Assembly: GCA_028707125.1 (NCBI GenBank)
Contig: JAQTUX010000001.1
Location: 822,528-886,527, forward strand
Source: Candidatus Omnitrophota bacterium
GTDB lineage: Bacteria > Omnitrophota > Gorgyraeia > Gygaellales > JAQTUX01
Direction of reading: 5' to 3'
DNA length: 64,000 nucleotides
Below, one piece after another: positions 41,742-57,312 of the stretch (positions within the stretch are counted from its first letter, which is position 1; every line of letters starts with the position of its first letter). Position numbers and translations under genes: made by a program. A model generated the notes under the pieces. That model was not told where the DNA came from and did no database searches. It was given only the letters and a program-made list of their open reading frames with translations.

Positions 41742-41748
41742 TCATATT

Positions 41749-42834: not shown

Positions 42835-44099
42835 AAGAATTCAAGGGTAAAAAGGCGGCTGTCCTGGGGGCGGGCCGTTCCGGGCTCGCGGCCGCGGCCC
42901 TGCTTAAAGACGCGGGGGCGGACGTGTTTGTCTCCGACCTGAGCGATTCCAGCAAGATCCTGGAGAGCGAGAGATTCCTTGCCGCCCGGGACATAGAATT
43001 TGAATTTGGAAAGCACTCCAAAGACAGGATAAAACAGAGCGGCCTTATTGTCATAAGCCCGGGCATAAGCGGGAACTCCGACATAGTGAAGTGGGCGGAT
43101 GGCCTGAAAATACCCATCATAAGCGAGATCGAACTGGGTTATCTTTTTTGCAAGGGCAGGATCGTGGCGGTCACCGGCACCAACGGGAAGACCACGGTAA
43201 CCACCCTCATCGGGAAGGTGATCTCGGCTGCCGGCTATAAGTGTTTTACCTGCGGCAACATCGGCAGGCCGTTTTGCGCGGACGCGGGGCAGGCGAGAGA
43301 GGGGGATTTTATCTCTTTGGAGGTAAGCTCTTTTCAGCTTGAAAGGACCCAAAGTTTTAAGCCGCGTGTGGCGGTAATGCTCAACATCAGCCCCGACCAT
43401 ATGGACAGATACCGCGATATTGATGAGTATTTTTCCGCGAAAAAGAAGATATACGCCAATCAGGGCAGCGACGATTTTCTTATACTCAATTACGATGACC
43501 CGCTTTTGGCCGGCCTGGCAGGCGAGGCGCCTTCCAGGGCGATGTTTTTCAGAGACAAGTTGGAAGATTCCAAACACGGCGTAAAATTGAATCCCAATCA
43601 CTTCGCGGTTATGGCCGCGGCCGAGGCGCTGGGCATACCTGAGAAGACCTGTATGGCGGTATTCAGGGAATTCAAAGGCGTGGAGCATCGCCTTGAAGCA
43701 GTGCGCACGATCAGAGATATATTATTCATCAACGACTCAAAGGCGACCAACGTGGATTCCGCGATCTGGGCATTGAAAAATTTGAGCCGGCCGGCGGTGA
43801 TCATTGCCGGCGGCAGGGATAAAAATTGCCCGCTGGACCCGGTCTTGCCGCTGGTAAGGCAAAAGGTAAAGCATATGGTGCTGATCGGCGAGGCCACGGA
43901 TAAGTTCTATGATTTTTTTAAAGATACCGTCAGTATTGATAAAGCCGGCGATCTGGAAGGCGCGGTAAGGGCCGCCTATAAGAGGGCAGCGCCCGGCGAC
44001 TGCGTCATCCTCAGCCCCATGTGCGCGAGTTTCGATATGTTTGATAACTATGAACATAGAGGGAGAGTATTTAAAGAGATAGTTAATAAATTGACATAG
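42831..44099 (+). CDS. murD: UDP-N-acetylmuramoylalanine--D-glutamate ligase
   Basis: GTNGKTT P-loop, MurD domain organisation. Confidence 0.9.
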   Translation: MKEFKGKKAAVLGAGRSGLAAAALLKDAGADVFVSDLSDSSKILESERFLAARDIEFEFGKHSKDRIKQSGLIVISPGISGNSDIVKWADGLKIPIISEIELGYLFCKGRIVAVTGTNGKTTVTTLIGKVISAAGYKCFTCGNIGRPFCADAGQAREGDFISLEVSSFQLERTQSFKPRVAVMLNISPDHMDRYRDIDEYFSAKKKIYANQGSDDFLILNYDDPLLAGLAGEAPSRAMFFRDKLEDSKHGVKLNPNHFAVMAAAEALGIPEKTCMAVFREFKGVEHRLEAVRTIRDILFINDSKATNVDSAIWALKNLSRPAVIIAGGRDKNCPLDPVLPLVRQKVKHMVLIGEATDKFYDFFKDTVSIDKAGDLEGAVRAAYKRAAPGDCVILSPMCASFDMFDNYEHRGRVFKEIVNKLT

Positions 44100-44104
44100 G
44101 GAAA

Positions 44105-44249
44105 TAAAACCCTAAACCCGAAACCCTAAACTCTAAATAAACCCAAATGTTAAAACCACAAACCCAAAACTTGATTATGGTTGCTGTTTGTAGTTTTGTG
44201 TTTTGAGTTTGTAGTTTGTTTAGTGTTTAGAGTTTAGTGTTTAGAGTTT
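44105..44249. repeat. Heptamer-periodic imperfect palindromic intergenic element B (CCCTAAA-like array facing TTTAGDG-like array)
   Basis: Left arm AAACCCT AAACCCG AAACCCT AAACTCT; right arm GTGTTTA GAGTTTA GTGTTTA GAGTTTA; occupies the whole murD-ftsW spacer. Confidence 0.6.
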
Positions 44250-44255
44250 AAGAAT

Positions 44256-45344
44256 ATGAGGCGGACAAGGATAACATTATTCTGCGTGACGGTGGCCCTG
44301 ATATGCCTGGGCCTGGTGATGATCTACAGCGCCAGTTCGATCTACGCCTGGGAAAACTACAAGGACAGCGCCTTTTTCCTGAAGAGGCAGCTGCTTTACG
44401 TCATCTTGGGGGCGATAGGCGGTTTTTTCACGCTTTCCTTTGATTACGCCCTCCTGCGCAAGGCGGCCAAGCCGCTGATGGTATTCTCAGTATTTCTGCT
44501 TTTACTTCTGCTCCTGCCGGGTATTTCCAGGGAGGTCTCAGGGGCAAGGCGCTGGTTCAGGTTAGGATTGATCGGTTTCCAGCCGTCGGAGCTGGCCATA
44601 TTGACAATGATCATCTATGTTTCGGATTTCATCTCCCGCAAAAAGGGCATCGTCAGGGATTTCTATTCCGGGTTCCTTCCGCCGGTGATGGTTTTAGGTT
44701 TTGTCACGCTGCTTATATTCCTTCAGCCGGACTTCGGCACCGCGGTAGGGATGGGCACGGTCACGCTGATAATCATTTTCCTGGGCGGCGCGCGGCTGGC
44801 CCATCTCGGTTCAATACTCCTGGCGGCTTTCCCTTTCTTATACGTTCTGGTCTTCAGCGTTCCCTATCGCAGGGCGAGGATAATGTCGTTCCTTAATCCC
44901 TGGCTTGACCCCAAGGGCAGCGGTTTCCAGATCATTCAATCGCAGATAGCGCTTGGTTCGGGCGGGCTTTTCGGAGTGGGGCTGGGCGAAGGCAAGCAGA
45001 AGCTGTTTTACCTGCCTGCCGCGCATACCGATTTTATATTCTCCATAATCGGAGAAGAACTGGGTTTTCTCGGCACAATGGCCGTGGTCATACTTTTTGT
45101 CACGTTGATATGGCAGGGCGTAAATATTGCCAGGAACTCTCCGGATCTATTCGGATGTTTATTGAGCGTGGGAGTGACATCAATGCTCGCCTTTAAGGCA
45201 TTCATAAACATAGGCGTGTCTTGCGGTATCCTGCCTACCAAAGGGCTCCCCTTGCCGTTTATAAGTTACGGGGGCTCTTCCTTATTGTTTGATATGATAG
45301 GCGTGGCTATTTTGCTTAATGTGGCAAAACACGCTGAGATATGA
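44256..45344 (+). CDS. ftsW: SEDS-family peptidoglycan glycosyltransferase FtsW
   Basis: 10-TM SEDS topology, conserved FtsW/RodA motifs. Confidence 0.9.
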   Translation: MRRTRITLFCVTVALICLGLVMIYSASSIYAWENYKDSAFFLKRQLLYVILGAIGGFFTLSFDYALLRKAAKPLMVFSVFLLLLLLLPGISREVSGARRWFRLGLIGFQPSELAILTMIIYVSDFISRKKGIVRDFYSGFLPPVMVLGFVTLLIFLQPDFGTAVGMGTVTLIIIFLGGARLAHLGSILLAAFPFLYVLVFSVPYRRARIMSFLNPWLDPKGSGFQIIQSQIALGSGGLFGVGLGEGKQKLFYLPAAHTDFIFSIIGEELGFLGTMAVVILFVTLIWQGVNIARNSPDLFGCLLSVGVTSMLAFKAFINIGVSCGILPTKGLPLPFISYGGSSLLFDMIGVAILLNVAKHAEI

Positions 45345-46429
45345 AAATACTGATCGCCTGCGGCGCCAGCGGCGGCCACATATTTCCGGCGATAAGTTTC
45401 GCGGAGCGCCTGAAGGCAGAGAGGCCTCAAGCGCGGATATTGTTCGTTGTCTCAAAGACGGCGTTCGGCAGCGCGATCCCGGGCGGCTATGATACCAGGG
45501 TCATTTCTGTTCTGCCGCCGGCGAGGTTCTTTTCCGCGCGTTTTTTCTGTTTTCTATTCTCGCTGGCCAGGGCATTCTTTGAAAGTATCTCCATCATCCG
45601 TAAATTTGATCCCGTCTTAGTAGTGGGATTCGGCTGTTATTCCTGCGTCCCCGCGGTATTGGCGGCGGTTATTTTAAGGAAGAAGACATTGCTGCACGAA
45701 CAGAACGTTATTCCGGGAAGGGCGCTGCGCCTTCTGGCGCCGTTCGTGAACAAAATAGCGATAAGCTTTCAGGAGACGCGCGATAGATTCGGTTTCTTAT
45801 ATAGGAAAAAGATCGTATTGACCGGCAATCCTTTACGCGGGGAGCTGTTTGGGAAGAGCCGGGATGACGCCTTGAGTTTTTTCGGTTTTGATCCGGGGAA
45901 GAAGACGATCCTGGTAATGGGCGGCAGCCAGGGAAGCCGGAAGATCAACAAGGCCTTTATCAGCGCGGCGGCGCCGCTCAAGGATCATCTGTCCATGCAG
46001 GTCATACATATTTGCGGCAGGGACGACAGGGAATATCTGGCGGGCGAGTACAAAAGATTAGGCGTAGATGCCCGCGTGTTTGATTTCCTGAAAGATATGG
46101 GATACGCCTATTCTCTGGCAGACGCGGTGGTATCGCGCGCCGGGGCTATGGCGGTATCTGAGATCATCGGGCTGGGAAAACCATCCGTGCTTATACCTTA
46201 TCCGTTTGCCAGGGCCCATCAATCGGCGAATGCCGAGGTGCTTTCTTCGGCGGGCGCCGCCATTGTGATAAAAGATGTCGAGCTGAGCGCGGAATACCTG
46301 CGCGGCAGATTATTGCTTTTATTGCGCGAACAGGAAGAAATTGATAGAATAAAGCGGGGGTTATCGGGGTTGGCAGTGCTGGAGGCGGATAAATTGCTGG
46401 TTAACAGCGCGTTGGAGCTATCGCATTGA
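45341..46429 (+). CDS. murG: UDP-N-acetylglucosamine--N-acetylmuramyl-(pentapeptide) pyrophosphoryl-undecaprenol N-acetylglucosamine transferase
   Basis: GT28 fold, GGSGGHIFP motif. Confidence 0.9.
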   Translation: MKILIACGASGGHIFPAISFAERLKAERPQARILFVVSKTAFGSAIPGGYDTRVISVLPPARFFSARFFCFLFSLARAFFESISIIRKFDPVLVVGFGCYSCVPAVLAAVILRKKTLLHEQNVIPGRALRLLAPFVNKIAISFQETRDRFGFLYRKKIVLTGNPLRGELFGKSRDDALSFFGFDPGKKTILVMGGSQGSRKINKAFISAAAPLKDHLSMQVIHICGRDDREYLAGEYKRLGVDARVFDFLKDMGYAYSLADAVVSRAGAMAVSEIIGLGKPSVLIPYPFARAHQSANAEVLSSAGAAIVIKDVELSAEYLRGRLLLLLREQEEIDRIKRGLSGLAVLEADKLLVNSALELSH

Positions 46430-47238
46430 TGGGCCTTATCAAGAGATGTTTGCTGCCGCTGGCAGTAATGATGTTTTGTGTTTTATCCTGCCGTGCTGAA
46501 TCCGTAGCGGGAAAAGAATGGAAAGAGAAAAGGAGCGAGCATTTCATTGTCTATTATGATGAGTTCAACAGGGATTTCCTGGATAAGCTGATAAGGCAGG
46601 CAGAGCGCCTGTATACGAAGATCACCGATAATCTGGGATATATGCGTTATGATTACTGGACCTGGGACAACAGGGCGAAGTTTTATATTTATAATGATAA
46701 AGACGGCTACGTGTCAGGCACGGGGCAGCCGCGCTGGTCTGAGGGCGCGGCAGATACCTACAACAAGATAATCACGACCTATTACGGCGCTTCAGACATT
46801 TTTTTTAACAGCATCCTGCCTCATGAGTTGGGGCATCTTATGTTCAGGGAATTCGTCGGTTTCAAGGCCTCGGTCCCGCTCTGGTTTGAAGAGGGCGTGG
46901 CTGTGATGCAGGAGGTATTGATGGATGAGGTGAGGCGGCATTCGGCAAGAAGCAGGGTAAAGAACGCCTGGCGCAACAAGACGTTCATACCCCTGACTAT
47001 CCTTTCATCCATGTCCGTGAGGGATGAGGATGATGAGTCAAGGGTAGGTTTATTTTATGACGAAGCGCTGATGGCCGTGTATTTCCTGATGGATGAGTTC
47101 GGCAGGGAAAGGTTTGTGAGGTTGTGCAGGCGCATAAGGGACGGCGACGGCTTTGCCGAGGCGCTGGTCTCCGTGTATCGCATTAATTCACTTGAAGAGT
47201 TGAATGAACGATTTGTTGAATATATAAGCAATGAATAG
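46426..47238 (+). CDS. Secreted putative gluzincin metallopeptidase (peptidase MA-like, HExxH + downstream Glu)
   Basis: Signal peptide; HELGH motif followed ~20 aa later by EEG; inserted between murG and murC. Confidence 0.55.
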   Translation: MMGLIKRCLLPLAVMMFCVLSCRAESVAGKEWKEKRSEHFIVYYDEFNRDFLDKLIRQAERLYTKITDNLGYMRYDYWTWDNRAKFYIYNDKDGYVSGTGQPRWSEGAADTYNKIITTYYGASDIFFNSILPHELGHLMFREFVGFKASVPLWFEEGVAVMQEVLMDEVRRHSARSRVKNAWRNKTFIPLTILSSMSVRDEDDESRVGLFYDEALMAVYFLMDEFGRERFVRLCRRIRDGDGFAEALVSVYRINSLEELNERFVEYISNE

Positions 47239-48610
47239 GCGCGTGCATTTCATAGGCATAGGCGGCATAGGCATGAGCGGGATCGCCAGCATACTGCTTA
47301 AAAAGGGCGAGAGCGTAAGCGGTTCCGACCTTAAGCTCAGCGCGGTAACCGATAAATTGAAGAAAGAGGGCGCCAGGGTCTCTCAGGGCCATTCCGCGGC
47401 TAACGTGGGATACGCCGACATAGTGGTCTATTCCTCGGCCATCAAGGAGGAGAATCCTGAATTAAAAGAGGCGCGCAGGCGCGGCATTGAGATATACAGC
47501 CGCGCGAGGATGCTGGCTGAGATAATGCTAGGTCATAAAGTCGTCACAGTGACCGGCGCGCACGGAAAGACCACCACCACATCCCTTATCTCGCACCTTT
47601 TGCAATACGCGGGATTATCGCCGACGGTGGCGGTGGGAGGCATACTGGCCAACATAGAAGATAACGCTTCCTTCGGCAACGGCTCGTTTTTTGTGGCTGA
47701 GGCGGACGAATCAGACGGCTCTTTCCTCTGTTATTCGCCGGATTATTCCGTGATAACCAACCTGGATTTTGAGCATATGGATTTCTATGGGACAGAGGAA
47801 AAACTCTTTGCCGCGTTCAGCGAGTTCATAAACAAGACCCGCGACAACGGCATTATCTTTGCCTGCGGCGACGACCGCAATTTAAGGCAGATGCTGGCAA
47901 AGAGCGGCAAAAAGAGCGTCCTGTTCGGCCTGGATGGGAATACGGATGTATATGCCGGGGATATTGTCCTGAACGGTTTTTCCTCGGAATTTGACTGTTA
48001 CGCTAAAGGCGCTTTCCTGGGAAGGTTCCATCTGCCTTTGGCGGGAAGGCACAATGTCTCAAACGCCCTGGCTGTAATAGCGGTAGGCAGCGAGGCCGGC
48101 GTAAAGGCCGATGTGATGAAAGAGGCCATGGCCTGTTTTCGCGGCATAGGCAGGAGGTTTCAGGTGAGGGCGGAATTAAAAGATGAGCGGATAATCGTAG
48201 TGGAAGATTACGGCCATCACCCCACTGAAATAAAGCGGACGCTGGAGGCGGTTAAGTCCTGCAAGTATGACAGGATAATCTGCGCCTTTCAGCCGCACAG
48301 GTACACGAGGACGCGGCTGTTGATGGACGAGTTTACGAAATGCTTTGACGCGGCAGACCACCTGATACTTACCGATATTTACGCGGCGTCGGAGCAGCCG
48401 ATTGAAGGCATTGATTCGCGGGTCTTATATAGAAATATACAGAGCAGGTTGGGCGGCAGGGTGGAATTCGCGCGCAAGGCAGAGATATCCGCGCGGATCG
48501 AGCGGATCTTGCGGCCCGGAGATTTTGTTATTATACTCGGCGCCGGAGATATCACAGAGGTATGCGATGAATTGGTGGAAAGGATTGGAAGGAAGGCTGA
48601 GGTTAGATGA
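47231..48610 (+). CDS. murC: UDP-N-acetylmuramate--L-alanine ligase
   Basis: GIGGIGMSG N-terminal motif, P-loop GAHGKTTTT. Confidence 0.9.
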   Translation: MNRRVHFIGIGGIGMSGIASILLKKGESVSGSDLKLSAVTDKLKKEGARVSQGHSAANVGYADIVVYSSAIKEENPELKEARRRGIEIYSRARMLAEIMLGHKVVTVTGAHGKTTTTSLISHLLQYAGLSPTVAVGGILANIEDNASFGNGSFFVAEADESDGSFLCYSPDYSVITNLDFEHMDFYGTEEKLFAAFSEFINKTRDNGIIFACGDDRNLRQMLAKSGKKSVLFGLDGNTDVYAGDIVLNGFSSEFDCYAKGAFLGRFHLPLAGRHNVSNALAVIAVGSEAGVKADVMKEAMACFRGIGRRFQVRAELKDERIIVVEDYGHHPTEIKRTLEAVKSCKYDRIICAFQPHRYTRTRLLMDEFTKCFDAADHLILTDIYAASEQPIEGIDSRVLYRNIQSRLGGRVEFARKAEISARIERILRPGDFVIILGAGDITEVCDELVERIGRKAEVR

Positions 48611-49454
48611 GCCGCTGCGGCGCCACAGCAGTTTTCGCATAGGCGGCAAAGCGCGCTTCTGGTATGAGCCGAAGGATATAGAGGGCTTGAGAGAGGCGCT
48701 TAGGCGGATCAAACAACATTCCATAAAAGCTGCCATAATCGGCGCCGGCAGCAATATCTTATTTGATGATAGTGGATTTAAAGGGGCCTGCCTGCGGCTT
48801 TGCTCGCCGGGATTCAGCGCGATCAGTAAGGCGGGAAGCAGTTCTATTGTCTGCGGCGCTGGCGCGATGCTCAAGGATATCGTGAGTTTTGCCGGGAGCC
48901 ATAATATGGGCGGGGCAGAGTTCCTGGCAGGCATACCCGGGACCCTGGGCGGCGCTATTATCATGAACGCGGGAGTAGAGAGCAGGAACATTTCCGATCT
49001 GGTCTCTGAAGTCGATCTTATGGATTATTCAGGCCGCGTCAGGGCGGTCAAGAAAGAAAACATCGCTTTCGCTTACCGGCGCTCTCGCCTGGGCAGGTAT
49101 ATAGTGCTTGGGGCTAAATTAAGGCTTTTCGCGCGCGAAGGGGAGTTGATCGGCAGGGATGTCAGGCGCATCATTGACAGGAGGCTCAAGACGCAGGACT
49201 ACAGCCATCCCAGCGCCGGGTGCGTATTCAAGAACCCTCCTTCTGATTCAGCCGGCCGGCTCATAGATATCTGCGGCCTTAAAGGAGAAAGGGTCGGCGG
49301 GGCAGAGGTTTCCAGCCGCCACGCCAATTTTATAATAAACAGGGGCAGGGCCAGATCGCGGGACGTTATACGGCTGATGAATATAATAAAAGGCAGGGTA
49401 AAGGACGAGTTCGGGATATGCTTAGAGCCGGAAATAAAGATATTGGGAAATTAA
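48567..49454 (+). CDS. murB: UDP-N-acetylenolpyruvoylglucosamine reductase
   Basis: FAD-binding PCMH domain (RIGGKA), MurB C-terminal domain. Start trimmed to ATG at 48567 (MNWWKG), a 44-nt overlap with murC. Confidence 0.85.
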   Translation: MNWWKGLEGRLRLDEPLRRHSSFRIGGKARFWYEPKDIEGLREALRRIKQHSIKAAIIGAGSNILFDDSGFKGACLRLCSPGFSAISKAGSSSIVCGAGAMLKDIVSFAGSHNMGGAEFLAGIPGTLGGAIIMNAGVESRNISDLVSEVDLMDYSGRVRAVKKENIAFAYRRSRLGRYIVLGAKLRLFAREGELIGRDVRRIIDRRLKTQDYSHPSAGCVFKNPPSDSAGRLIDICGLKGERVGGAEVSSRHANFIINRGRARSRDVIRLMNIIKGRVKDEFGICLEPEIKILGN

Positions 49455-50374
49455 AGAAAGCTAATGTAGGCATTTTGATGGGAGGGGTCTCTTCTGAGAG
49501 AGAGATATCTCTTAAGTCCGGCGCAGCCGTGGCTGCCTGCCTGCGCGAGGCGGGATTCAACATAAAAGAGATAGATATTGCTACGGATAGGCCGGCTGAT
49601 ATAAAGCGGCTGCTGCGGGAGTCAGGGATCGGCCTCGCCTTTATCGCGCTGCACGGCCGGCTGGGAGAAGATGGGAAGATCCAGAAGATACTCGGCGATC
49701 TGGGCATTGTTTATACCGGCTCTTCTCCGCGCGCCAGCGATCTTGCCCTGGATAAGGTATCTTCAAGGGTGCTGTTTGAAAAAGGCGGTTTGCATACGCC
49801 GCGGTATAGCATTTTGAACAAAAAACGTTCGTTGGATGATCTGCCTGATATTTCCTTTCCGGTTGTGGTAAAGCCGCCGCGCGAGGGCTCCAGCATAGGC
49901 CTGTCAATAGTTGATTCGCCTGGCGGCCTGAAACAGGCGTTGTCCCGCGCGTTTGAATATGACAGCAGGGCGATCGTGGAGGAATATATACGGGGGCGCG
50001 AAGTGACCGTGGGTATCCTGGCGGATAATGCCCTGCCTGTCATAGAGATCTTCCCCAAAAGAAGGTTCTTTGATTATAGCGCGAAATATAAGAAGGGGTT
50101 CACCGAATATATAGTGCCGGCAAAATTAAAGAAGAGCGAATCCTCTGCCTGTAAGGACGCGGCCTTGAAGGCGCACCGGCTGCTGGGCTGCGACAGTTTT
50201 TCCCGGGTGGACATCATTCTTTCCCAGGGCGGCAGGCCGTATGTGCTGGAGGTTAACACCATACCGGGCTTTACCGCGTCCAGCCTGCTGCCGAAGGCGG
50301 CGGCTTCTATTGGGTTGACTTTTTCTGATTTATGTATAGAATTGTTAAGGTTGGCTTATGAAAAAGAAAAATAA
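49418..50374 (+). CDS. ddl: D-alanine--D-alanine ligase
   Basis: VGILMGGVSSEREISLKSG N-terminus, ATP-grasp motifs. Confidence 0.9.
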   Translation: MLRAGNKDIGKLKKANVGILMGGVSSEREISLKSGAAVAACLREAGFNIKEIDIATDRPADIKRLLRESGIGLAFIALHGRLGEDGKIQKILGDLGIVYTGSSPRASDLALDKVSSRVLFEKGGLHTPRYSILNKKRSLDDLPDISFPVVVKPPREGSSIGLSIVDSPGGLKQALSRAFEYDSRAIVEEYIRGREVTVGILADNALPVIEIFPKRRFFDYSAKYKKGFTEYIVPAKLKKSESSACKDAALKAHRLLGCDSFSRVDIILSQGGRPYVLEVNTIPGFTASSLLPKAAASIGLTFSDLCIELLRLAYEKEK

Positions 50375-51092
50375 AAAGACATTATCGCTTATAATAATCC
50401 TGCTCATTGCCCTGGGTTCAGCCGCTGCCCTCGCGTGGTACGCGGCGCGGGCCGTAAGGTCCTCGGCATTCTTCAGGATAAAGGGCGTAGCCATCGCTTC
50501 CAACGCGAAGATAGATGTCTCGCATCTTATAGGCAGGAATATATTTGACGTTGACCTGAGAAGGGAGATCCGGTTTCTCAGGAACAACTATCCCCGGCTC
50601 AGGATATTGAGCGTGGTCAAGCGTTTTCCCGACAGGATGATCATAAATTCCCGGACGCGCGCGGCAATAGCGCAGATAAAGTCCTACCGCTACCTGTTCA
50701 TAGACGAAGAGGCGGTCATATTGCCGGAAGAATCCGATTATGGCAGCAGCACGCTTCCTGTCATCGTAGGCCTGGAGTCAAAGATAAGCAGGCCCAGGTA
50801 CGGCTGGTCATACGCCGATCTAAAGGAGATCAAGATCGCGTTTGAGCTTATGAAAGAACTGAAAGGTAATCCCGATACCGCCGGTTTAGATATCGCGAAG
50901 ATAGACGTGTCCAGCCCCGGCAGCCTTTCTTTTTCTGTCAGGCCTTCCGGCTTGCCGATCAAGGTGGGGGATGAGGATATAAAAAAGCGCGTAAGATCGC
51001 TGGGGGCTGTATTGCGCAAGCTGGACGCGAAATTGGATAACTTGAGCTATATAGACCTCAGGTTTTCTGAGCCGGTAGTCAAACCAAAATAA
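50358..51092 (+). CDS. ftsQ: Cell division protein FtsQ/DivIB
   Basis: Single N-terminal TM then POTRA-like domain; canonical ddl-ftsQ-ftsA position. Confidence 0.75.
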   Translation: MKKKNKKTLSLIIILLIALGSAAALAWYAARAVRSSAFFRIKGVAIASNAKIDVSHLIGRNIFDVDLRREIRFLRNNYPRLRILSVVKRFPDRMIINSRTRAAIAQIKSYRYLFIDEEAVILPEESDYGSSTLPVIVGLESKISRPRYGWSYADLKEIKIAFELMKELKGNPDTAGLDIAKIDVSSPGSLSFSVRPSGLPIKVGDEDIKKRVRSLGAVLRKLDAKLDNLSYIDLRFSEPVVKPK

Positions 51093-51095
51093 ATC

Positions 51096-52319
51096 ATGGC
51101 AGTTAAGAACAGTATGGTCTGCGGACTGGATATCGGCACGAGCAAAATAGCGGGCTGCCTTTGCCTGGGCGCCAGGGGGCAGCAGAAGCCCGCGTTGTTT
51201 TTTTCTTCCGCGGAGGCGCGCGGCATAAAGAAAGGCGTGGTAAACGACGCTGCCTTGTTTTGCGAATCGGTGGATAAGGTTTTAGGCGGCCTGCAGAAGG
51301 ACTCAGGCGCGCGGTTCAGGGAAGTGCATGTAAGCCTCCAGGGGGATTTTTCCTGCAGGCATTCCAACGCCGCTGTTACGCTCTCTGAACGAGGGAACAG
51401 GCAGATAACCAGCCAGGACATCAGGAAAATAAACGAACAGGCAAGGATGCTTGGGGTGCGCCTGGATGAATCGCTTCTGTATTCTTTTCCGGTTTACTAC
51501 GTTATAGATGACGATGTGAGGAGCGCCAAGCCCGCGGGGCTTTACGCGCGCAAATTTGAGGTGGACCTTTATCTGGTCACCGCCCCGGCGAGCTTAACGG
51601 ATAACATCGCCCTGGCGATAAATAACGCCGGCTATAATGTGGCCGGCTTTTATTTGTCTTCGGCGGCATTGGGGCATTCCGCGTTAACCGCTGAGGAGCA
51701 GGATAAGGGGGTGCTGTTGATAGATATGGGCGCTGAGATCACCGAGGCGGCTGTATTCAAAGACGGCGGCGTCAGGCACCTTGAGATATTCGGCTTCGGC
51801 GCGGATGATTTTACGCGCGCGTTAAAGGATGAGCTTAAGATAGGCATTGAGCTGGCAGAGGAGATCAAGGAATCATACGGCACTCTGTTTGTGGAGCAGC
51901 TGGACGATAAACAGGAGATCATGATAAACCGGCATGGTTCGTATGTGCCGGTTAAGCGCAGCGAGATTTGCTGCGCGCTGGTAAAGAAGTCAGGGCCCAT
52001 ACTAAAGGCAATGGAGAACAGGTTAAGGTATATCATCAACAAGGAGGAGTTGCCTTGCGGTATTGTGGCGGCAGGGGGCGGCTCTTACCTTGAAGGGCTG
52101 CTTGAGGCGATGGAGAAGGTCTTCCATGTTTCCGTAAAGATCGCAGCCATACGCCAGGATCTGACGCAAAAGAAGGAGCTGAAATACGCCACCGCGCTTG
52201 GCATCATTAAAATGGTGCTTGAGTCGCGGGAGCAGAAAGAATCATCTCTACCCACCCCCGAAGGCCTCTTCCGCAGGCTATCCGAGAAGCTCAAGGAAGT
52301 GTATCAGGAATATTTCTAG
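51096..52319 (+). CDS. ftsA: Cell division protein FtsA
   Basis: Actin-like ATPase motifs (GLDIGTSKI), FtsA domain layout. Confidence 0.9.
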   Translation: MAVKNSMVCGLDIGTSKIAGCLCLGARGQQKPALFFSSAEARGIKKGVVNDAALFCESVDKVLGGLQKDSGARFREVHVSLQGDFSCRHSNAAVTLSERGNRQITSQDIRKINEQARMLGVRLDESLLYSFPVYYVIDDDVRSAKPAGLYARKFEVDLYLVTAPASLTDNIALAINNAGYNVAGFYLSSAALGHSALTAEEQDKGVLLIDMGAEITEAAVFKDGGVRHLEIFGFGADDFTRALKDELKIGIELAEEIKESYGTLFVEQLDDKQEIMINRHGSYVPVKRSEICCALVKKSGPILKAMENRLRYIINKEELPCGIVAAGGGSYLEGLLEAMEKVFHVSVKIAAIRQDLTQKKELKYATALGIIKMVLESREQKESSLPTPEGLFRRLSEKLKEVYQEYF

Positions 52320-52347
52320 TCTTTACCATCTTCCAAGGCGTTTCCCT

Positions 52348-52367
52348 CTACACACTTACGTGTGTAG
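52348..52367. repeat. REP-type hairpin (CTACACAC-TTAC-GTGTGTAG) overlapping tnpA stop codon
   Basis: Perfect 8-bp stem; the TAA stop of tnpA lies in the loop. Confidence 0.6.
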
Positions 52368-52727
52368 AATCCTTTGGCTGCGGATGTATTCTTGCACGCT
52401 TTCTAATTCTACTATATCCACTTCTCTAAAACCATATCGCCTTGCCCAGAAATGCTTAGGATTGTAATTCCCCACACGTAAGTGTGGGGTGTTCTCCAAT
52501 AGTTTCTTACCAGAAACAGATTTTAGTGTTCTTACCATATCAGCCAATTCTTTCCTGTCTTTTGCTTCCAGCAACATATGCACGTGGTTCTTATTGGATT
52601 CCATTTCCAAAATATTATAGTTCTTTCGTTGTGCTACCTCTAGAAAAGAGTTCTTTGCTATCTCTTCAGCTTTCGCTTCCAGTGTTTCTCTTCTGCGCTT
52701 TGTCACGAACCAGATATGGTAATACAT
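52356..52727 (-). CDS. tnpA: IS200/IS605-family Y1 (HUH) transposase TnpA / REP-associated tyrosine transposase-like
   Basis: HUH motif HVHMLL, C-terminal catalytic Tyr in SVQEYIRSQ, ~123 aa; REP hairpins at gene end and inside it. Confidence 0.8.
   Translation of the reverse strand: MYYHIWFVTKRRRETLEAKAEEIAKNSFLEVAQRKNYNILEMESNKNHVHMLLEAKDRKELADMVRTLKSVSGKKLLENTPHLRVGNYNPKHFWARRYGFREVDIVELESVQEYIRSQRILHT
52470..52489. repeat. REP-type hairpin in inverted orientation (CCCCACAC-GTAA-GTGTGGGG), inside tnpA coding sequence
   Basis: Perfect 8-bp stem; encodes TPHLRVG of TnpA. Confidence 0.55.
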
Positions 52728-52806
52728 GGTTTTTGCGGAAATTACCCCCCTCTACTATATATGACGCAAAAATCAGCGTTTTACTTGCAAGAAAGTTTAA
52801 ATATTC

Positions 52807-53042
52807 TATGAACCCGCTGGCTTCCTCGCTCATATCGGTTTTGCCCCGAATGGTATTCAAAGAGGGCCGGCAAAGGTCTCTCGCAGCTCGGTGCTTGCGG
52901 AACTCGCCCTTTTTGCTCCAGCAAAAAGGGCTCAGACAGTCCTCGCACTTTGGGCCTTATAGGCCACAAAGTTCCCTCGCTGCTCGAGCTGCTTTGCCTA
53001 AAACCTCAAATTCGCTCGTAAGCCAGCGGGTTCATTTACGAG
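52807..53042. repeat. MITE-like element with ~24-bp terminal inverted repeats (ATGAACCCGCTGGCTTcCtCGCTC) and internal 11-bp perfect hairpin
   Basis: TIRs read directly at ~52808-52833 and ~53016-53040; internal GCCCTTTTTGC-TCCA-GCAAAAAGGGC. Confidence 0.45.
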
Positions 53043-53177
53043 ATGCTCGCTCGTAGGAATATCAAAAATAACTAAGCAATCAGAACTTATTACGGTATAA
53101 TAGATAGCAGCAAGGAGAACCGTCCCCGATCCAATATTTATATTACAAGAAAGCATAATGTCGACTAATTATTTTCT

Positions 53178-53205
53178 TGACATATAATATTAAATGTGTT
53201 AATCT
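53178..53205 (+). promoter_or_regulatory. Sigma70-like promoter of island operon (TTGACA-16-TAATCT) with AAAGGAGG RBS downstream
   Basis: Read directly in AT-rich spacer upstream of 53232. Confidence 0.45.
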
Positions 53206-53231
53206 GTTAACATCTATGAAAGGAGGCAAGC

Positions 53232-53432
53232 ATGCAAAAACAAAAAAATGACACTGAAAGAGATATGGTAAAACATCTGAAGAAATTAGTTATGCTTAGC
53301 GAAAATTCCTTGATTATAAGTCTATCTCAACAAGATGTCCCTCATCAGACGATACGAAAAGTTGCCGGAGTTGATATGTCTCGTGTCACCTCGTTGCTTC
53401 GCGGGGTAAAGTCTGCAAAAAAGACTGATTAG
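53232..53432 (+). CDS. Small putative HTH protein, paralog 1 of 4 (66 aa)
   Basis: Hydrophobic helix then helix-turn-helix-like HQTIRKVAGVDMSRVTSLLRG; aligns with the other three small ORFs. Confidence 0.5.
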   Translation: MQKQKNDTERDMVKHLKKLVMLSENSLIISLSQQDVPHQTIRKVAGVDMSRVTSLLRGVKSAKKTD

Positions 53433-53448
53433 CGAAAGGAGTACTACT

Positions 53449-53613
53449 ATGCAAAACACTGACAAAATCATTGAGGAATTAGTGGCTATAAAGAAGCTGC
53501 TTATGCTTCAATTAATGCGCGATGACGTGGACGCCTCCGTAATTGGGAAGGTACTAGAACTAACCCCTACGCGAATACGACAAATAATACCAGTAAAAGA
53601 CGTACGCAAATAA
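53449..53613 (+). CDS. Small putative HTH protein, paralog 2 of 4 (54 aa; below ORF-track cutoff)
   Basis: MQNTDKIIEELVAIKKLLMLQLMRDDVDASVIGKVLELTPTRIRQIIPVKDVRK; AGGAG RBS 8 nt upstream; same architecture as neighbours. Confidence 0.5.
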   Translation: MQNTDKIIEELVAIKKLLMLQLMRDDVDASVIGKVLELTPTRIRQIIPVKDVRK

Positions 53614-53628
53614 TAAGGAGCCTTCATA

Positions 53629-53856
53629 ATGAAACGAACTAGGAAAATTGGCGCAGAAGACGAAGTTTCAGTAAAATTGGGCATCTTAATCCGGTTGTTT
53701 ATTGAATTTCTGATAACATCGGAAAATAAGAACTTTAATACTGGCAACGTTGCAAGAATCTTAAAATCACTCGATATTACACCAACCGAAATTGCAAGAA
53801 TGTTAGGTAAGAAATCTGTAACTGATGTTGCACCATTTCTTTATCGTAAGAAGTAA
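53629..53856 (+). CDS. Small putative HTH protein, paralog 3 of 4 (75 aa)
   Basis: LGILIRLFIEFLI helix then NVARILKSLDITPTEIARMLG HTH-like segment. Confidence 0.5.
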   Translation: MKRTRKIGAEDEVSVKLGILIRLFIEFLITSENKNFNTGNVARILKSLDITPTEIARMLGKKSVTDVAPFLYRKK

Positions 53857-53869
53857 GGGGTAGATACCA

Positions 53870-54769
53870 ATGTCTACTTATATTCAGCAAGTAACAGACG
53901 TTAGATCAAATTCAAGTGACCAAATACACTTCGCAGCAAAATTGATTAGGCGTTCCAGACAAAAAAAGGCCGTGTTTAAGGCAATCTACCGTGGTAAAAA
54001 ACAGATTAAATCCATTTCTGAAATAGAGAAAGTCACCGATTTAAATAATATCCAAATATTAAAAGCTGGTGGGACCTTAGCTGGGAATGGTATTGTCAAA
54101 AAAGTAAAAAAGGGATACCAAAAAGATACATTTTATGCACAACATTATCGCAAAATATTGTCTCTCGCCTCAAATAGTAAAAAGTTGAAACAATTCCCAA
54201 CAAAAACACAACCCTATCTCAATTCTAATATAGGCACAACTAGTAGAATATCGCTTAAAAAACCTGCGCAAAAAGTAAGATTTATTACAATTGATGATAT
54301 CTATTCATTTAGAAAAATTAAAGATAATAAATCAAAAAATAATATAGATGGAACATTTCTTTCCAAACTTCCTGAGAATGAAATCAAAAGTGGAATCGCA
54401 AAGATCATTAGGGAAAGCGGAATATTTAAAGACTGGGCAGGAGAAAAAAATGATCTATTTACAACAAAAGTAAGCATTGGATCAAAAAGGGTGGCTGCTG
54501 TTTTTGCGTTTAAAGGAAAAGGCACAAAAGGCATTTTAACATTAGATAAAATGGGAAAAAGAGCAGACCAAATTCAGCGACTATTTGACAGCCAATCTTC
54601 TCAACTATTTATAGTGGTTTATAAAGGACAAATAGGCCAAGTTATTCTTGAGCAGATGTATGCTTACGCTATTGCGAAGGCTCTTTACGGTAAAGAGATC
54701 TATTACGGTATTATTGATGGAGATGACTTGATGCGGCTAATTTCATCTTATAAGAACTGTTTTGAATAG
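53870..54769 (+). CDS. Hypothetical K-rich 299-aa protein, no recognisable domain
   Basis: AT-rich codon usage; N-terminal possible winged-helix-like segment, low-complexity K/N/S linker, C-terminal alpha/beta region (possible nuclease-like fold, unproven). Confidence 0.5.
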   Translation: MSTYIQQVTDVRSNSSDQIHFAAKLIRRSRQKKAVFKAIYRGKKQIKSISEIEKVTDLNNIQILKAGGTLAGNGIVKKVKKGYQKDTFYAQHYRKILSLASNSKKLKQFPTKTQPYLNSNIGTTSRISLKKPAQKVRFITIDDIYSFRKIKDNKSKNNIDGTFLSKLPENEIKSGIAKIIRESGIFKDWAGEKNDLFTTKVSIGSKRVAAVFAFKGKGTKGILTLDKMGKRADQIQRLFDSQSSQLFIVVYKGQIGQVILEQMYAYAIAKALYGKEIYYGIIDGDDLMRLISSYKNCFE

Positions 54770-54780
54770 GAGGCGACATA

Positions 54781-54990
54781 ATGAAGAAAAAGCGCAGTAT
54801 AACTAAAAAAAGTCTGTCTGATTCCGATCGTTTAGATATAATCATATCTTTACTAAGTCACTTACTAACTGTTCAGTTATATAAATCAGGCGCGACAATG
54901 GATGATATATGTAGGCATTTACATATTGCAAAAACATCCGTGGTCGATATGTTAAAAGGTTTCAAGCGAAAGCTCGGTAATAATTCGTAA
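54781..54990 (+). CDS. Small putative HTH protein, paralog 4 of 4 (69 aa)
   Basis: IIISLLSHLLTVQL helix then TMDDICRHLHIAKTSVVDMLKGF. Confidence 0.5.
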   Translation: MKKKRSITKKSLSDSDRLDIIISLLSHLLTVQLYKSGATMDDICRHLHIAKTSVVDMLKGFKRKLGNNS

Positions 54991-55080
54991 ACAAGACGGT
55001 TACAATTAATCTTGGACCAATAACATAATGGGGACGGTTCTCATTAGTTTTAGTTGCTGAATCATAACAGACCTAGTAGC

Positions 55081-55180
55081 CGCTTTTCGTAATTAGCTAA
55101 TTTCCCGTAACTTACAGAACAAATATTTACCCCACACTTACGTGTGGGGAATGGCAATCCCTGATTGTCTCAGCGGGTGG
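55081..55180 (+). repeat. Repeat unit U1: CGCTTTTCGTAATTAGCTAATT head (12-bp perfect palindrome AATTAGCTAATT) + REP hairpin (55130-55149) + CTGATTGTCTCAGCGGGTG tail
   Basis: Read directly; second copy U2 ~175 bp downstream. Confidence 0.55.
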
Positions 55181-55255
55181 CTTTGGACGGGGCGCCCCGC
55201 CCCGCGCGGAGTTCTCCCGTCCGTTATGGTAATGAATTCTATGAAGAATGGCAGA

Positions 55256-55400
55256 CGCTTTTCGTAATTAGCTAATTCCCCCATAACTCTATATAAGGAT
55301 ATCACAAGATGTGATATCCTTTATTGTTTCTAATGCTATTGGAGGGTACCCCACACTTACGTGTGGGGAATGACAATTCTGCACTGATTGTCTCAGCGGG
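55256..55400 (+). repeat. Repeat unit U2: same head, extra perfect hairpin AAGGATATCAC-AAGAT-GTGATATCCTT (55295-55321), REP hairpin (55349-55368), tail merging into 230-bp repeat copy 1
   Basis: Read directly. Confidence 0.55.
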
Positions 55401-55613
55401 TGACTGCCGAGCGGGCACAGAATTTCGGGAGGGGTGACGTCGTTTTGAGGGCTCCCGCCGCGCGGACCCGCCAAGACATCTGGCGGGGAGCACGGCGGGA
55501 AACAAAACGACGGCAGGACCCCTCCCTCAGAGTTACAATCTAGATACTTCGGCGGTGATTTATTGACAAGGCCGCCTCAGTATCAACACCAGGACGCATA
55601 CGAAGGTGTTGAC
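55384..55613 (+). repeat. ~230-bp GC-rich structured direct repeat, copy 1 (upstream of MNT/HEPN pair)
   Basis: Near-identical to 56405-56634; nested inverted repeats GGGAGGGGTGACGTCGTTTTG / CAAAACGACGGCAGGACCCCTCCC and inner CCCGCCA-AGACATC-TGGCGGG. Confidence 0.7.
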
Positions 55614-55638
55614 ATTTATATAAGTTATATTGTATAAT
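55609..55638 (+). promoter_or_regulatory. Consensus sigma70-like promoter (TTGACA-18-TATAAT) for MNT/HEPN operon
   Basis: Perfect hexamers read directly at the end of repeat copy 1. Confidence 0.55.
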
Positions 55639-55679
55639 TAAGTTGCGAATACTTAGCGGGATAAAAAAATTAGGCAAAT

Positions 55680-55967
55680 ATGACGACAAAGATTAGTAGA
55701 ATAAAACAAATAATACTGCCGATCTTGCAACAATACGGCGCTAAAAAAGCAGCGCTATTTGGCTCATATGTCAGAGACCAGATGAAAAAGGATAGTGATA
55801 TTGATATATTGGTAGAAATTGAAAAGGATATCAGCCTGCTTGATTTTATAGGTCTTAAACAAGAGATTGAAGAGGCGTTAGGAAGGAAGATAGATTTGGT
55901 GGAATATGACAGCATTAAACCTCTTCTCAGAAAGCGTATTTTAAAAGAGCAAGTGGTAATTCTATGA
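55680..55967 (+). CDS. Minimal nucleotidyltransferase (MntA-like antitoxin)
   Basis: GSxxRG...DSDIDILV pol-beta NTase motif, 95 aa. Confidence 0.8.
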   Translation: MTTKISRIKQIILPILQQYGAKKAALFGSYVRDQMKKDSDIDILVEIEKDISLLDFIGLKQEIEEALGRKIDLVEYDSIKPLLRKRILKEQVVIL

Positions 55968-56308
55968 AAAGAGACGCTAGAGTATATATCGAAGATATCA
56001 TAGAGAGCATTACAAAGATAGAAGAGTATACGAAGGATCTTAAGTCCGAAGACGATTTCTATAAGGATACTCAGATTCAAGATGCTGTCTTAAGGCGGCT
56101 GGAAATCATCGGTGAGGCAGTTAAGAATATCCCCGAAGAGATCAAGAGGAAATATCCGCAGATACCATGGAAGAAGATTGCCGGCATGAGAGATATTCTT
56201 ACTCATCAATATTTTGTAGTAAACCTGAAACAAACATTTAAGGCAGTCAAAGAAGACATCCTCGATCTAAAAAAGAACATTGCGCAGATAAACAAAGAAT
56301 TGCCATAG
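55964..56308 (+). CDS. HEPN-domain toxin (DUF86/HepT-like)
   Basis: Rx4HxY motif (RDILTHQY), 114 aa, 4-nt overlap with upstream NTase gene. Confidence 0.8.
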   Translation: MKRDARVYIEDIIESITKIEEYTKDLKSEDDFYKDTQIQDAVLRRLEIIGEAVKNIPEEIKRKYPQIPWKKIAGMRDILTHQYFVVNLKQTFKAVKEDILDLKKNIAQINKELP

Positions 56309-56352
56309 TTGTTTTGAGGTCGCAAAGTGCGACCTCAAAGATTGTTTCGTTT

Positions 56353-56384
56353 ACGCCTCCAAATTAACTTGGAGGCGTTTTTAT
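56353..56384 (+). terminator. Intrinsic terminator after HEPN gene (GCCTCC-AAATTAAC-TTGGAGGC + T-run), preceded by a second hairpin at 56314-56338
   Basis: Read directly. Confidence 0.65.
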
Positions 56385-56404
56385 TGGACGCGGATGGATT
56401 GGTT

Positions 56405-56634
56405 CTGATTGTCTCAGCGGGTGACGCCGAGCGGGCACAGAATTTCGGGAGGGGTGACGTCGTTTTGAGGGCTCCCGCCGCGCGGACCCGCCAAGACATC
56501 TGGCGGGGAGCACGGCGGGAAACAAAACGACGGCAGGACCCCTCCCCTCAGAGTTACAATCTAGATACTTCGGCGGTGATTTATTGACAAGGCCGCCTCA
56601 GTATCAACACCGAGCAGCATACGAAGGTGTTGAC
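56405..56634 (+). repeat. ~230-bp GC-rich structured direct repeat, copy 2 (upstream of yggS)
   Basis: Near-identical to 55384-55613 (few substitutions/indels). Confidence 0.7.
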
Positions 56635-56664
56635 TTCCTCGATAGATTATGATAATTTAAGGCG

Positions 56665-57312
56665 ATGATTAGGGAGAATATTGCCCGCATAAGAGAGGAA
56701 ATATCGGCTGTTTGCGGGAAAATCGGCCGTGACCCTAAGGAAATCAGGATTATTGCCGTATCAAAAGGCAGGTCAATAGAGGAAATTGAGGAAGTTCTGG
56801 CCTGCGGCATCACTGATATCGGCGAAAATAAGGTCCAGGAAGCCAAGCGCAAGATTAAAGGTTTAAGCGCCAAGTTGCACATGGTTGGACACCTGCAGTC
56901 AAACAAGTCCAAGGGCGCTGTTGAGCTCTTTGATCTGATACATTCTGTGGACAGCTTTGAACTCGCTGAAGCCATTGATAAACAGGCGGCAAAACTCGGC
57001 AAAGTCCAGGATATCCTGATCGAGGTCAACACTTCCGGCGAAAAGAGCAAATTCGGCATAAGGCCGGACGACCTTATCCTGCTTATCGGCCGGATAAGAG
57101 AGCTTAAACACATTCGCGTCAAGGGGCTGATGACAATGGCGCCTGTGGCGGATAACCCCGAGGAAATAAGGCCGTATTTCAGGAAGTTAAGGGAGTTAAG
57201 AGACCGGGAACATCTGGCAGAACTATCAATGGGAATGAGCGATGACTATAAGGTCGCCATAGAAGAAGGCGCCACAATAGTGCGCCTGGGCAGGGCGATA
57301 TTTGAAAAGTAG
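56665..57312 (+). CDS. yggS: PLP homeostasis protein YggS/PROSC family
   Basis: Alanine-racemase-N-like TIM barrel with conserved Lys in IAVSKGRS...HMVGHLQSNK. Confidence 0.85.
   Translation: MIRENIARIREEISAVCGKIGRDPKEIRIIAVSKGRSIEEIEEVLACGITDIGENKVQEAKRKIKGLSAKLHMVGHLQSNKSKGAVELFDLIHSVDSFELAEAIDKQAAKLGKVQDILIEVNTSGEKSKFGIRPDDLILLIGRIRELKHIRVKGLMTMAPVADNPEEIRPYFRKLRELRDREHLAELSMGMSDDYKVAIEEGATIVRLGRAIFEK

Follow-up and report, generated by a model that had tools for sequence, protein, structure and literature searches.

Almost all bacteria carry FtsZ, and it is not well understood how the few lineages without it divide. FtsA is the usual membrane anchor for FtsZ. We analyzed a window of 64 kb (the whole stretch of Omnitrophota DNA under study) in which the dcw cluster stops at ftsA and about 4.3 kb of repeat-rich DNA with a transposase gene occupies the canonical slot of ftsZ, and asked what became of that gene. 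A preliminary description of this DNA had proposed either displacement of ftsZ through insertion or recombination at this site, or an organism that has FtsA but no FtsZ. Our results very probably reflect an ftsA-yggS junction that is ftsZ-less throughout the phylum, with no ftsZ elsewhere in the genome either, and an island that was inserted later and is not the displacer.

The dcw cluster and the search for ftsZ

The dcw cluster is complete and collinear from mraZ to ftsA (Table 1), as previously described, with the gene order mraZ, rsmH, an ftsL-sized ORF, ftsI, murE, murF, mraY, murD, ftsW, murG, a Peptidase_MA_2 gene, murC, murB, ddl, ftsQ, and ftsA. The Peptidase_MA_2 gene, inserted between murG and murC, is the one addition. 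FtsA passes the TIGR01174 equivalog model (197.5 bits, cutoff 175.85) and carries the SHS2 (1C) insert (PF02491 SHS2_FTSA, E = 6.4e-10). Downstream, yggS opens the conserved block yggS-proC-mtap-ileS-dksA-like-lspA-lgt, and FtsK is encoded beside RodZ in the same window. The taxonomic assignment held throughout, with the best FtsA relatives all belonging to Omnitrophota, IleS sharing 61-69% identity with Omnitrophota loci, and a 299-aa protein of the island being 100% identical to NCBI PHR44_04390 (Candidatus Omnitrophica bacterium).

The absence of ftsZ from its slot was borne out, as were the limits given for the gap, with ftsA ending at 52319, yggS resuming at 56665, and no tubulin/FtsZ ORF between them (52320-56664). 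A tblastn search of the whole window with E. coli FtsZ returned nothing significant (best E = 0.17 over 28 residues) and no ftsZ fragment or pseudogene, and a six-frame scan found no GGGTG(S/T)G-type motif; back-translated FtsZ, used as a positive control, scored 660 bits. All scanned ORFs of at least 110 aa in the window had ordinary assignments. The arrangement that defines the canonical ftsQAZ module, with ftsZ directly 3' of ftsA, is thus not found here.

The island between ftsA and yggS

Several kinds of small elements make up the island, and the GC content of its AT-rich part is 0.30-0.39 compared with about 0.52 in the flanks. The tnpA gene, MITE-like element, AT-rich operon, and toxin-antitoxin (TA) pair listed in the preliminary description were all recovered. 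Its tandem repeats are instead dispersed direct repeats, with no tandem arrays detected in the island by Tandem Repeats Finder, and its "REPs" proved to be copies of a single 20-nt palindrome, which is present within the tnpA coding sequence as well.

Table 1. Features of the dcw cluster, the island, and yggS, in window coordinates.
Feature	Position	Strand	Support or remark
dcw cluster, mraZ–ftsA	35472..52319	+	Pfam matches for all genes except a 121-aa ORF (36811-37176)
ftsQ	50358..51092	+	PF03799 FtsQ_DivIB_C, E = 8.5e-9
ftsA, final gene of the cluster, intact	51096..52319	+	TIGR01174, PF14450, PF02491
Palindromic hairpin CTACACACTTACGTGTGTAG	52341..52372	.	Overlaps tnpA stop
tnpA, IS200/IS605-family Y1 transposase, 123 aa	52356..52727	-	PF01797, E = 1e-27
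Foldback MITE-like element, 228 bp, 35-nt imperfect TIRs	52808..53035	.	Inverted repeat I3
AT-rich cassette, 16-nt inverted repeats AAGGAGAACCGTCCCC / GGGGACGGTTCTCATT at bounds	53112..55045	+	Inverted repeat I6
Two repeat units of ~100-150 bp, each with palindrome CCCCACACTTACGTGTGGGG	55078..55405	.	
231-bp direct repeat, copy 1	55384..55613	+	97.4% identical to copy 2
mntA, type VII TA nucleotidyltransferase antitoxin	55680..55967	+	NF047752, PF18765, PF01909
hepT, HEPN RNase toxin	55964..56308	+	PF01934, E = 1.6e-28
231-bp direct repeat, copy 2	56405..56634	+	Abuts native yggS leader
yggS	56665..57312	+	TIGR00044, 190.8 bits; Pfam; synteny in 62 loci

TnpA scored 90 bits with the NCBIfam model transpos_IS200 (NF033573; cutoff 55) and fell below the cutoff of the RAYT model (33.6 against 80). 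IS200/IS605 elements carry distinct subterminal hairpins at their left and right ends. Here, one hairpin lies at the tnpA 3' end, with a related copy at 26124-26155, and the other copy is intragenic (52463-52482); inverted-repeat analysis of the island revealed no clear second IS end for tnpA. The foldback MITE-like element has a predicted DNA fold of -58.3 kcal/mol (z = -7.5). Within the AT-rich cassette, the operon itself spans 53232-54990 and comprises 4 small HTH-like ORFs (53232-53432, 53449-53613, 53629-53856, and 54781-54990) and the gene of the 299-aa protein (53870-54769), a winged-helix protein according to its structure model. An Mrr-like type IV restriction enzyme, which would combine an N-terminal winged helix with a PD-(D/E)xK nuclease domain at the C terminus, was considered as a candidate for this protein. 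Homologues were found and the module recurs; the cassette is horizontally acquired.

The 2 repeat units downstream of the cassette, with their palindromes at 55128-55160 and 55347-55377, are homologous to a stretch inside tnpA (52458-52502) and resemble remnants of tnpA or of a MITE. The 231-bp direct repeats flank the TA pair; copy 1 forms a long stable hairpin (RNA fold z = -5.7), and its 3' end provides the -35 box of a predicted sigma-70-type promoter upstream of mntA (55609-55638; 12/12 consensus matches). A second dispersed direct-repeat pair consists of copies of 55-59 bp that lie 219 bp apart. MntA scored 61.5 bits with NF047752 (cutoff 60) and shows the GS-x10-DxD motif (GSYVRDQMKKDSDID); HepT has the R-x4-H motif RDILTH and scored below its equivalog cutoff (44.9 against 60). 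The 2 genes (55680-56308) overlap by 4 bp, agree in motifs and gene order with type VII systems, and are followed by 2 terminator-like hairpins (56312-56340 and 56353-56378).

Three independent short-read contigs from the same sample were 100% identical to the window and agreed with its content. These contigs stop at 52371, 52989, 55157, and 56582, each within a repeat, one of them in the hairpin that overlaps the tnpA stop; none of the independent contigs spans the island junctions, and the order of elements within the island rests on the present contig.

The junction and FtsA across Omnitrophota

A comparison with related genomes at the ftsA-yggS junction had been suggested as a check, and we carried it out on 80 other Omnitrophota species representatives retrieved via FtsA, with 1.5-10 kb available beyond ftsA and 73 loci offering at least 1.5 kb. 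The order ddl-ftsQ-ftsA-yggS-proC-mtap-ileS-dksA-lspA-lgt was conserved across the 80 species and is the same in the window. No FtsZ was found near ftsA in any of the 73 loci, even at E <= 10, in 1.27 Mb searched. In 62 loci, yggS comes next after ftsA, at a median distance of 120 bp; 45 of these gaps are shorter than 300 bp, and 6 measure at least 1 kb and hold unrelated genes. In the nearest relative with genomic context (L002; FtsA 59% identical; a 131.6-kb JGI contig), about 100 bp separate ftsA from yggS, which is followed by proC, mtap, and ileS. This locus holds no island and no ftsZ, and it shares with the window the last ~35 bp 5' of the yggS ATG (TTGACTT...TGATAATTTAAGGCG). Because island-free relatives also lack ftsZ at this slot, its absence there is ancestral to the phylum and predates the island. 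Foreign DNA has landed repeatedly in the ftsA-yggS spacer, an insertion hotspot of the ordinary kind.

We then examined FtsA in an alignment of 123 sequences (121 in a first pass). T. maritima R301/E304, whose numbering was verified, correspond to E. coli R300/E303, which we take to be the FtsA residues that bind the FtsZ tail; in a T. maritima co-crystal they are reportedly salt-bridged to it. Both were invariant in 42/42 database FtsA sequences from FtsZ-bearing bacteria and present in 3 structure-derived references (E. coli, S. aureus, and T. maritima). The FtsA of the window has K298 and P301 at these positions, and among Omnitrophota FtsA (n = 78), R300 was kept in only 8% and E303 in only 4%. 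Half of the 20 universally conserved FtsA positions are altered in Omnitrophota, and all 4 universally conserved positions of the 2B subdomain are replaced. Ten core positions remain 86-100% conserved, the ATPase-core residues are kept, and conservation extends to the C-terminal tail (...KEVYQEYF), a putative amphipathic membrane-targeting helix in which Y406 and F407 are identical in all 14 sequences compared. As a sign of lost FtsZ-tail binding, the R300/E303 loss is suggestive and not specific, since Omnitrophota FtsA is divergent overall.

Published surveys point the same way. The supplement of Seymour et al. (2023) reports no genuine ftsZ across 421 Omnitrophota genomes, with a single exception that resembled an archaeal gene, and in Pende et al. 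(2021; PMC8178401), the legend of Fig. 5 places Omnitrophica among FtsZ-less phyla and a supplementary table gives FtsA without FtsZ in 3/5 genomes. A single genome, OLB16, led Rivas-Marin et al. (2016 and 2017) to class Omnitrophica as FtsZ-bearing, and a 2025 paper calls the Omnitrophota dcw genes "highly conserved." The presence of FtsA without FtsZ is an already reported phylum-level trait and not peculiar to this locus; the earlier remark that it would be unusual applies to bacteria generally and not to Omnitrophota.

The suggestion that ftsZ once lay between ftsA and yggS in this lineage and was lost or moved through insertion of, or recombination between, the mobile elements did not survive these comparisons. 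A repeat-rich junction with a transposase gene could in principle mediate deletions, but the island-free nearest relative and 62 other loci with the same flanking genes are likewise without ftsZ, the sequence just before yggS is conserved between the window and that relative, and no ftsZ remnant is left, so displacement is barely conceivable. Nearly as improbable is a misassembly at the repeats, whether chimeric or collapsed, that cost the contig a segment with ftsZ. The breaks of the short-read assembly within repeats and the unbridged junctions would allow it, but the 3 contigs agree in content, both flanks are in phylum-typical order, and the relatives give no reason to expect ftsZ at this slot. 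Unusual tubulins occur in other PVC bacteria, and very remote homologues may escape sequence searches. It is nonetheless quite improbable that a highly divergent tubulin-superfamily or other cytoskeletal protein from another locus substitutes for FtsZ; nothing speaks directly for one, the window offers no candidate among its scanned ORFs, and the FtsA surface for the FtsZ tail is not conserved.

Benign relocation, in which ftsZ lies elsewhere, driven by a promoter of its own, and is odd in location only, is somewhat less remote but still unlikely. The contig is at least 1.26 Mb long and the window covers 64 kb of it, an intact FtsA implies an FtsZ partner in most bacteria, and the OLB16-based count would allow for one. 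Against relocation stand the 421 genomes of Seymour et al., the FtsA-only genomes in the table of Pende et al., and the loss in Omnitrophota of FtsA residues that are invariant alongside FtsZ. These surveys, the 1.27 Mb of FtsZ-free flanking sequence, and the FtsA residue loss support the other proposal of the preliminary description, that the organism lacks FtsZ and keeps FtsA; at the level of the whole genome, the absence of ftsZ is presumed from the literature and such indirect evidence.

Probable division without FtsZ and comparison with known systems

The Omnitrophota dcw cluster ends at ftsA and runs straight into yggS-proC-mtap-ileS. Under the phylum-wide reading, the 4.3-kb island would be a younger, lineage-specific build-up in which small selfish elements enlarged a spacer of usually ~120 bp, having neither taken out nor substituted for ftsZ. 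FtsA, with its ATPase core and tail kept, would act in division without FtsZ, probably as a membrane-bound scaffold recruiting FtsQ, FtsW, and FtsI. The locus represents no new kind of system, and what appears to be a missing essential gene beside mobile DNA is simply the usual condition in this phylum. The loss of FtsZ-linked residues from FtsA nevertheless yields a concrete hypothesis on FtsZ-independent division, for which we see about as much reason to accept as to doubt, namely that FtsA in Omnitrophota has taken on a new role as the main membrane scaffold of the divisome, working independently of FtsZ, a third FtsZ-less solution among PVC bacteria. If so, the changed R/E pair and the 4 replacements in the 2B subdomain would be the molecular trace of the repurposed FtsA, and the solution would differ from those of Chlamydiota and Planctomycetota, which do without FtsA.

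Chlamydiota and Planctomycetota, which like Omnitrophota belong to the PVC superphylum, also lack ftsZ and have kept peptidoglycan synthesis together with ftsQ, ftsW, ftsI, and ftsK. They have also lost FtsA, however, whereas Omnitrophota keep ftsA at the end of an intact, collinear dcw cluster. FtsK and RodZ, both encoded in the window, are the partners on which chlamydial MreB-based division relies (PMC7029139; PMC12283558). Compared with the canonical ftsQ-ftsA-ftsZ cluster of E. coli and Verrucomicrobium spinosum, the window has the same order from mraZ to ftsA but no ftsZ, its FtsA is without the invariant R/E pair, and in its relatives yggS comes directly after ftsA. The surveys of Seymour et al. 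(2023) and Pende et al. (2021) describe the same trait, no ftsZ homologue with FtsA present; the parts cited above are silent on the ftsA-yggS junction, on changes to the FtsZ-binding residues of FtsA, and on insertions at the junction. By curated models and motifs, the components of the island fit the IS200/IS605, foldback MITE, and type VII MntA/HepT families. They differ from typical IS200/IS605 elements in having no clear left and right ends, no tnpB, and a palindrome inside the tnpA coding sequence, and from typical MntA/HepT systems in that the cassette lies between 231-bp direct repeats, one of which gives the promoter its -35 box.

The ftsA-yggS junction and the absence of ftsZ

The dcw genes 5' of ftsQ run in the order mraZ, rsmH, a small ORF, ftsI, murE, murF, mraY, murD, ftsW, murG, a Peptidase_MA_2 gene, murC, murB, and ddl, and family scans of the window placed proC, an MTAP-type phosphorylase gene, ileS, a dksA-like gene, lspA, and lgt downstream of yggS. 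We identified no significant FtsZ match in the 64-kb window by tblastn with E. coli FtsZ (best E = 0.17, 28 residues) and no GGGTG(S/T)G-like motif in any of its frames, with a back-translated FtsZ recovered at 660 bits as the positive control; the preliminary description was therefore correct that ftsZ is missing from the slot between ftsA and yggS. GC content was 0.30-0.45 across 52.3-56.6 kb, the mobile-element island occupying that slot, vs ~0.52 in the flanks. Run SRR22315508 contains the same organism, and three independent short-read contigs from it match the window, all of them ending inside repeats.

The Peptidase_MA_2 gene (46426-47238, 270 aa) lies between murG and murC, and a homologue was found at the same position in 33 of the 58 Omnitrophota loci in which murG and murC are both covered. 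The longest murB ORF (48402-49454) has a TTG start and overlaps murC by ~200 bp; translation probably begins at a more 3' codon, because the gene call on an identical Logan contig is 295 aa.

Two readings of the empty slot had been proposed, displacement of ftsZ by the island and an organism without FtsZ that keeps FtsA. The closest relative for which flanking sequence was available is L002, a 131.6 kb contig from JGI whose FtsA is 59% identical to that of the window; there, yggS, proC, mtap, ileS, dksA, lspA, and lgt follow ~100 bp after ftsA, with neither island nor ftsZ at the junction. L002 and the window share the ~35 bp that lead up to the start codon of yggS (TTGACTT...TGATAATTTAAGGCG), so the native yggS leader is still present at the island's right-hand boundary. 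A promoter reading of the conserved TTGACTT...TGATAAT upstream of yggS was rejected, because a promoter there would sit too close to the start codon for a leader to fit and the scan for promoters gave no hit on it. All strong relatives of the window FtsA were from Omnitrophota, and a scan with an FtsA alignment across one genome per GTDB species gave 80 further Omnitrophota loci. No FtsZ match was obtained by tblastn across 82 loci (1.27 Mb), even at E <= 10. Among the 73 loci with at least 1.5 kb 3' of ftsA, yggS came next in 62, with a median gap of 120 bp (45 gaps < 300 bp and six of at least 1 kb), and other housekeeping genes followed ftsA in the remaining loci. The larger gaps contain unrelated genes, examples of which are listed in the table. 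Given these junctions and the varied cargo in their gaps, a junction without ftsZ is ancestral to Omnitrophota, and insertions have entered the spacer repeatedly. Displacement by the island was thus the wrong reading, since the island-free L002 and the other Omnitrophota junctions are also without ftsZ, and the suggested comparison of related genomes at this junction argues against it for the same reason.

The reading that the organism lacks FtsZ while keeping FtsA was right, and this state is already published for the phylum, though little discussed. Seymour et al. 2023 reported no genuine ftsZ among 421 Omnitrophota genomes, the one exception being 89% identical to an archaeal protein. In Pende et al. 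2021 (PMC8178401), Omnitrophica are grouped with Planctomycetes and Chlamydiae as FtsZ-less, with FtsA absence limited to the latter two among these three, and its table lists FtsA without FtsZ in Ca. Omnitrophus magneticus, RIFOXYB12_FULL_50_7, and SM23_29, and FtsZ only in OLB16, where it adjoins FtsA. Earlier reviews (Rivas-Marin et al. 2016, 2017) had scored the phylum as FtsZ-bearing from OLB16 alone, conceding doubt for other genomes, and a 2025 paper calls the dcw genes "highly conserved" in Omnitrophota. For the genome beyond the 64-kb window read here, this literature and indirect evidence suggest that ftsZ is absent elsewhere as well.

L002 is the sole close relative with context, because metagenomes scanned with the three closest FtsA sequences, aligned, yielded only two distant FtsA loci, the peptide patterns being too generic. 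L083, a further relative (FtsA 46% identical), ends ~210 bp past ftsA. There were no exact-sequence matches on record for the window FtsA, HepT, or TnpA, and this lineage was not among the species-representative (GTDB) genomes scanned, where the best FtsA identity was 37%. Several public MAGs titled "uncultured Planctomycetales," "Margulisiibacteriota," or "Verrucomicrobiota" (L003, L008, L013, L017, L068, and others) carry an Omnitrophota-type FtsA and ftsA-yggS-proC-mtap-ileS synteny, and their taxonomic labels are probably wrong.

Contents of the island

We consider the island an unexceptional mosaic of selfish elements that occupies a permissive site between genes. Family models, repeat analysis, and GC content bore out the preliminary description of a tnpA gene, a MITE-like element, an AT-rich block, and a toxin-antitoxin pair. 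Its tandem repeats did not hold, as TRF identified no tandem arrays. A RAYT/REP identity of tnpA was rejected in favor of IS200, since the REP-associated transposase model (REP_Tyr_transpos) scored 33.6 bits against a cutoff of 80. No Rfam families were found in 52000-57000. Within the tnpA coding sequence, the palindrome CCCCACAC(GT/TT)A(AG/CG)TGTGGGG encodes ...TPHLRVG...; intergenic, free-standing copies are present too and may be either what is left of related tnpA genes or elements that TnpA mobilised.

Features of the ftsA-yggS region and cargo at the same junction in relatives (L loci in their own coordinates)
Feature	Position	Details
ftsQ	50358-51092	ORF listing and family scan
ftsA	51096-52319	NCBIfam FtsA equivalog 197.5 bits vs cutoff 175.85; Pfam FtsA and SHS2 domains
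Palindromic hairpin	52341-52372	overlaps tnpA end
tnpA, IS200/IS605 transposase gene, 123 aa		minus strand; IS200 model 90 bits vs cutoff 55
Palindrome sites, CCCCACAC type	52458-52502, 55128-55160, 55336-55380, 26124-26155	
Foldback element (MITE-like), 228 bp		35-nt terminal inverted repeats; fold z = -7.5
AT-rich cassette	53112-55045	16-nt inverted repeats at ends; four small HTH-like ORFs and 299-aa protein
299-aa winged-helix protein	53870-54769	
Two repeat units with palindrome CCCCACACTTACGTGTGGGG		between AT-rich cassette and MntA/HepT; homologous to stretch inside tnpA
231-bp direct repeat copies	55384-55613 and 56405-56634	97.4% identical; bracket MntA/HepT
yggS	56665-57312	ORF listing and family scan
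SRR22315508 contig matches	44220-52371; 52989-55157; 56582-57830	100% identity
L024 cargo in ftsA-yggS spacer	11353-16506	1717-aa protein
L041 cargo in ftsA-yggS spacer	2222-4154	conserved pair, 195-aa and ~450-aa ORFs
L063 cargo in ftsA-yggS spacer	11348-13265	same conserved pair, 195-aa and ~450-aa ORFs

The 299-aa protein matches NCBI hypothetical protein PHR44_04390 [Candidatus Omnitrophica bacterium], encoded on a 1,261,957-bp contig, at 100% identity and belongs to an unannotated family, without a Pfam domain, of 71 homologues spread over several phyla. A module of a ~295-aa protein with two to four small HTH-like ORFs recurs elsewhere. In another lineage (L085-L087) it adjoins a HEPN gene and a restriction-modification gene of MmeI type, and in a Brocadiales genome (L088) it separates the B gene from the A gene of topoisomerase VI. 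Homology between these loci is detectable for two of the small ORFs. In an AlphaFold model (pLDDT 88.5), a winged helix at the N terminus precedes a C-terminal alpha/beta domain, for which only weak matches were obtained, to phage "restriction endonuclease" and Mrr proteins. Our best guess, tentatively, is that the cassette may be a mobile, Mrr-like DNA-targeting module with small regulators.

MntA/HepT, a type VII toxin-antitoxin pair, shows both of its signature motifs. Folding of either flanking 231-bp repeat gives a long, highly stable hairpin (z = -5.7). In the first copy the terminal TTGACA forms, with TATAAT of the toxin-antitoxin cassette, a perfect sigma-70-type promoter predicted by promoter scan; the second copy abuts the native yggS leader. 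The first ~30-70 bp of the repeat recur 3' of lgt (63525-63598, minus strand), and it therefore looks like a dispersed MITE-like family able to donate a -35 box.

FtsA residues in a phylum reported to lack FtsZ

We aligned FtsA from 78 Omnitrophota with 42 sequences of other phyla from the same search and three from solved structures (E. coli, S. aureus, and T. maritima). For twenty positions, conservation in the first non-Omnitrophota set was at least 93%, and S. aureus and T. maritima carried the same residue. Ten of these (D14, I15, G16, G45, G49, D138, P146, G212, G224, and G336, E. coli numbering) were kept at 86-100% in Omnitrophota and belong to the core of the fold, so Omnitrophota FtsA is under constraint. 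The other ten were lost, including all four in or beside subdomain 2B (D242, L293, R300, and E303). R300 and E303 were invariant in 42/42 database FtsA of FtsZ-bearing bacteria and in all three references, and were kept in only 8% and 4% of Omnitrophota FtsA, respectively, with K298 and P301 at these positions in the window FtsA. In the alignment, they correspond to R301 and E304 of T. maritima, which in the structure of Szwedziak et al. 2012 (PDB 4A2A) reportedly form salt bridges with the FtsZ C-terminal peptide. A further published account describes three salt bridges holding this peptide. Loss of the pair backs the FtsZ-less reading as an independent line, supportive rather than specific because Omnitrophota FtsA is divergent in general. 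Across the phylum, FtsA keeps its C-terminal tail (...KEVYQEYF), which fits a retained, putative membrane anchor.

FtsA of the window lineage is only 31-37% identical to other Omnitrophota FtsA, yet its IleS is 61-69% identical. The FtsA of this lineage (the window, L002, and L083) keeps the canonical L197, E201, G205, G331, and G337, lost in most Omnitrophota.

The remaining interest lies in the biology of FtsA without FtsZ, for which the conserved junction and the lost R/E pair offer a testable lead. The window also encodes a full-length FtsK (4TM, alpha, motor, and gamma domains) followed directly by a RodZ homologue (HTH_25 and RodZ_C; 15476-18406). Chlamydia is likewise without FtsZ, and FtsK and MreB/RodZ are central to its division.
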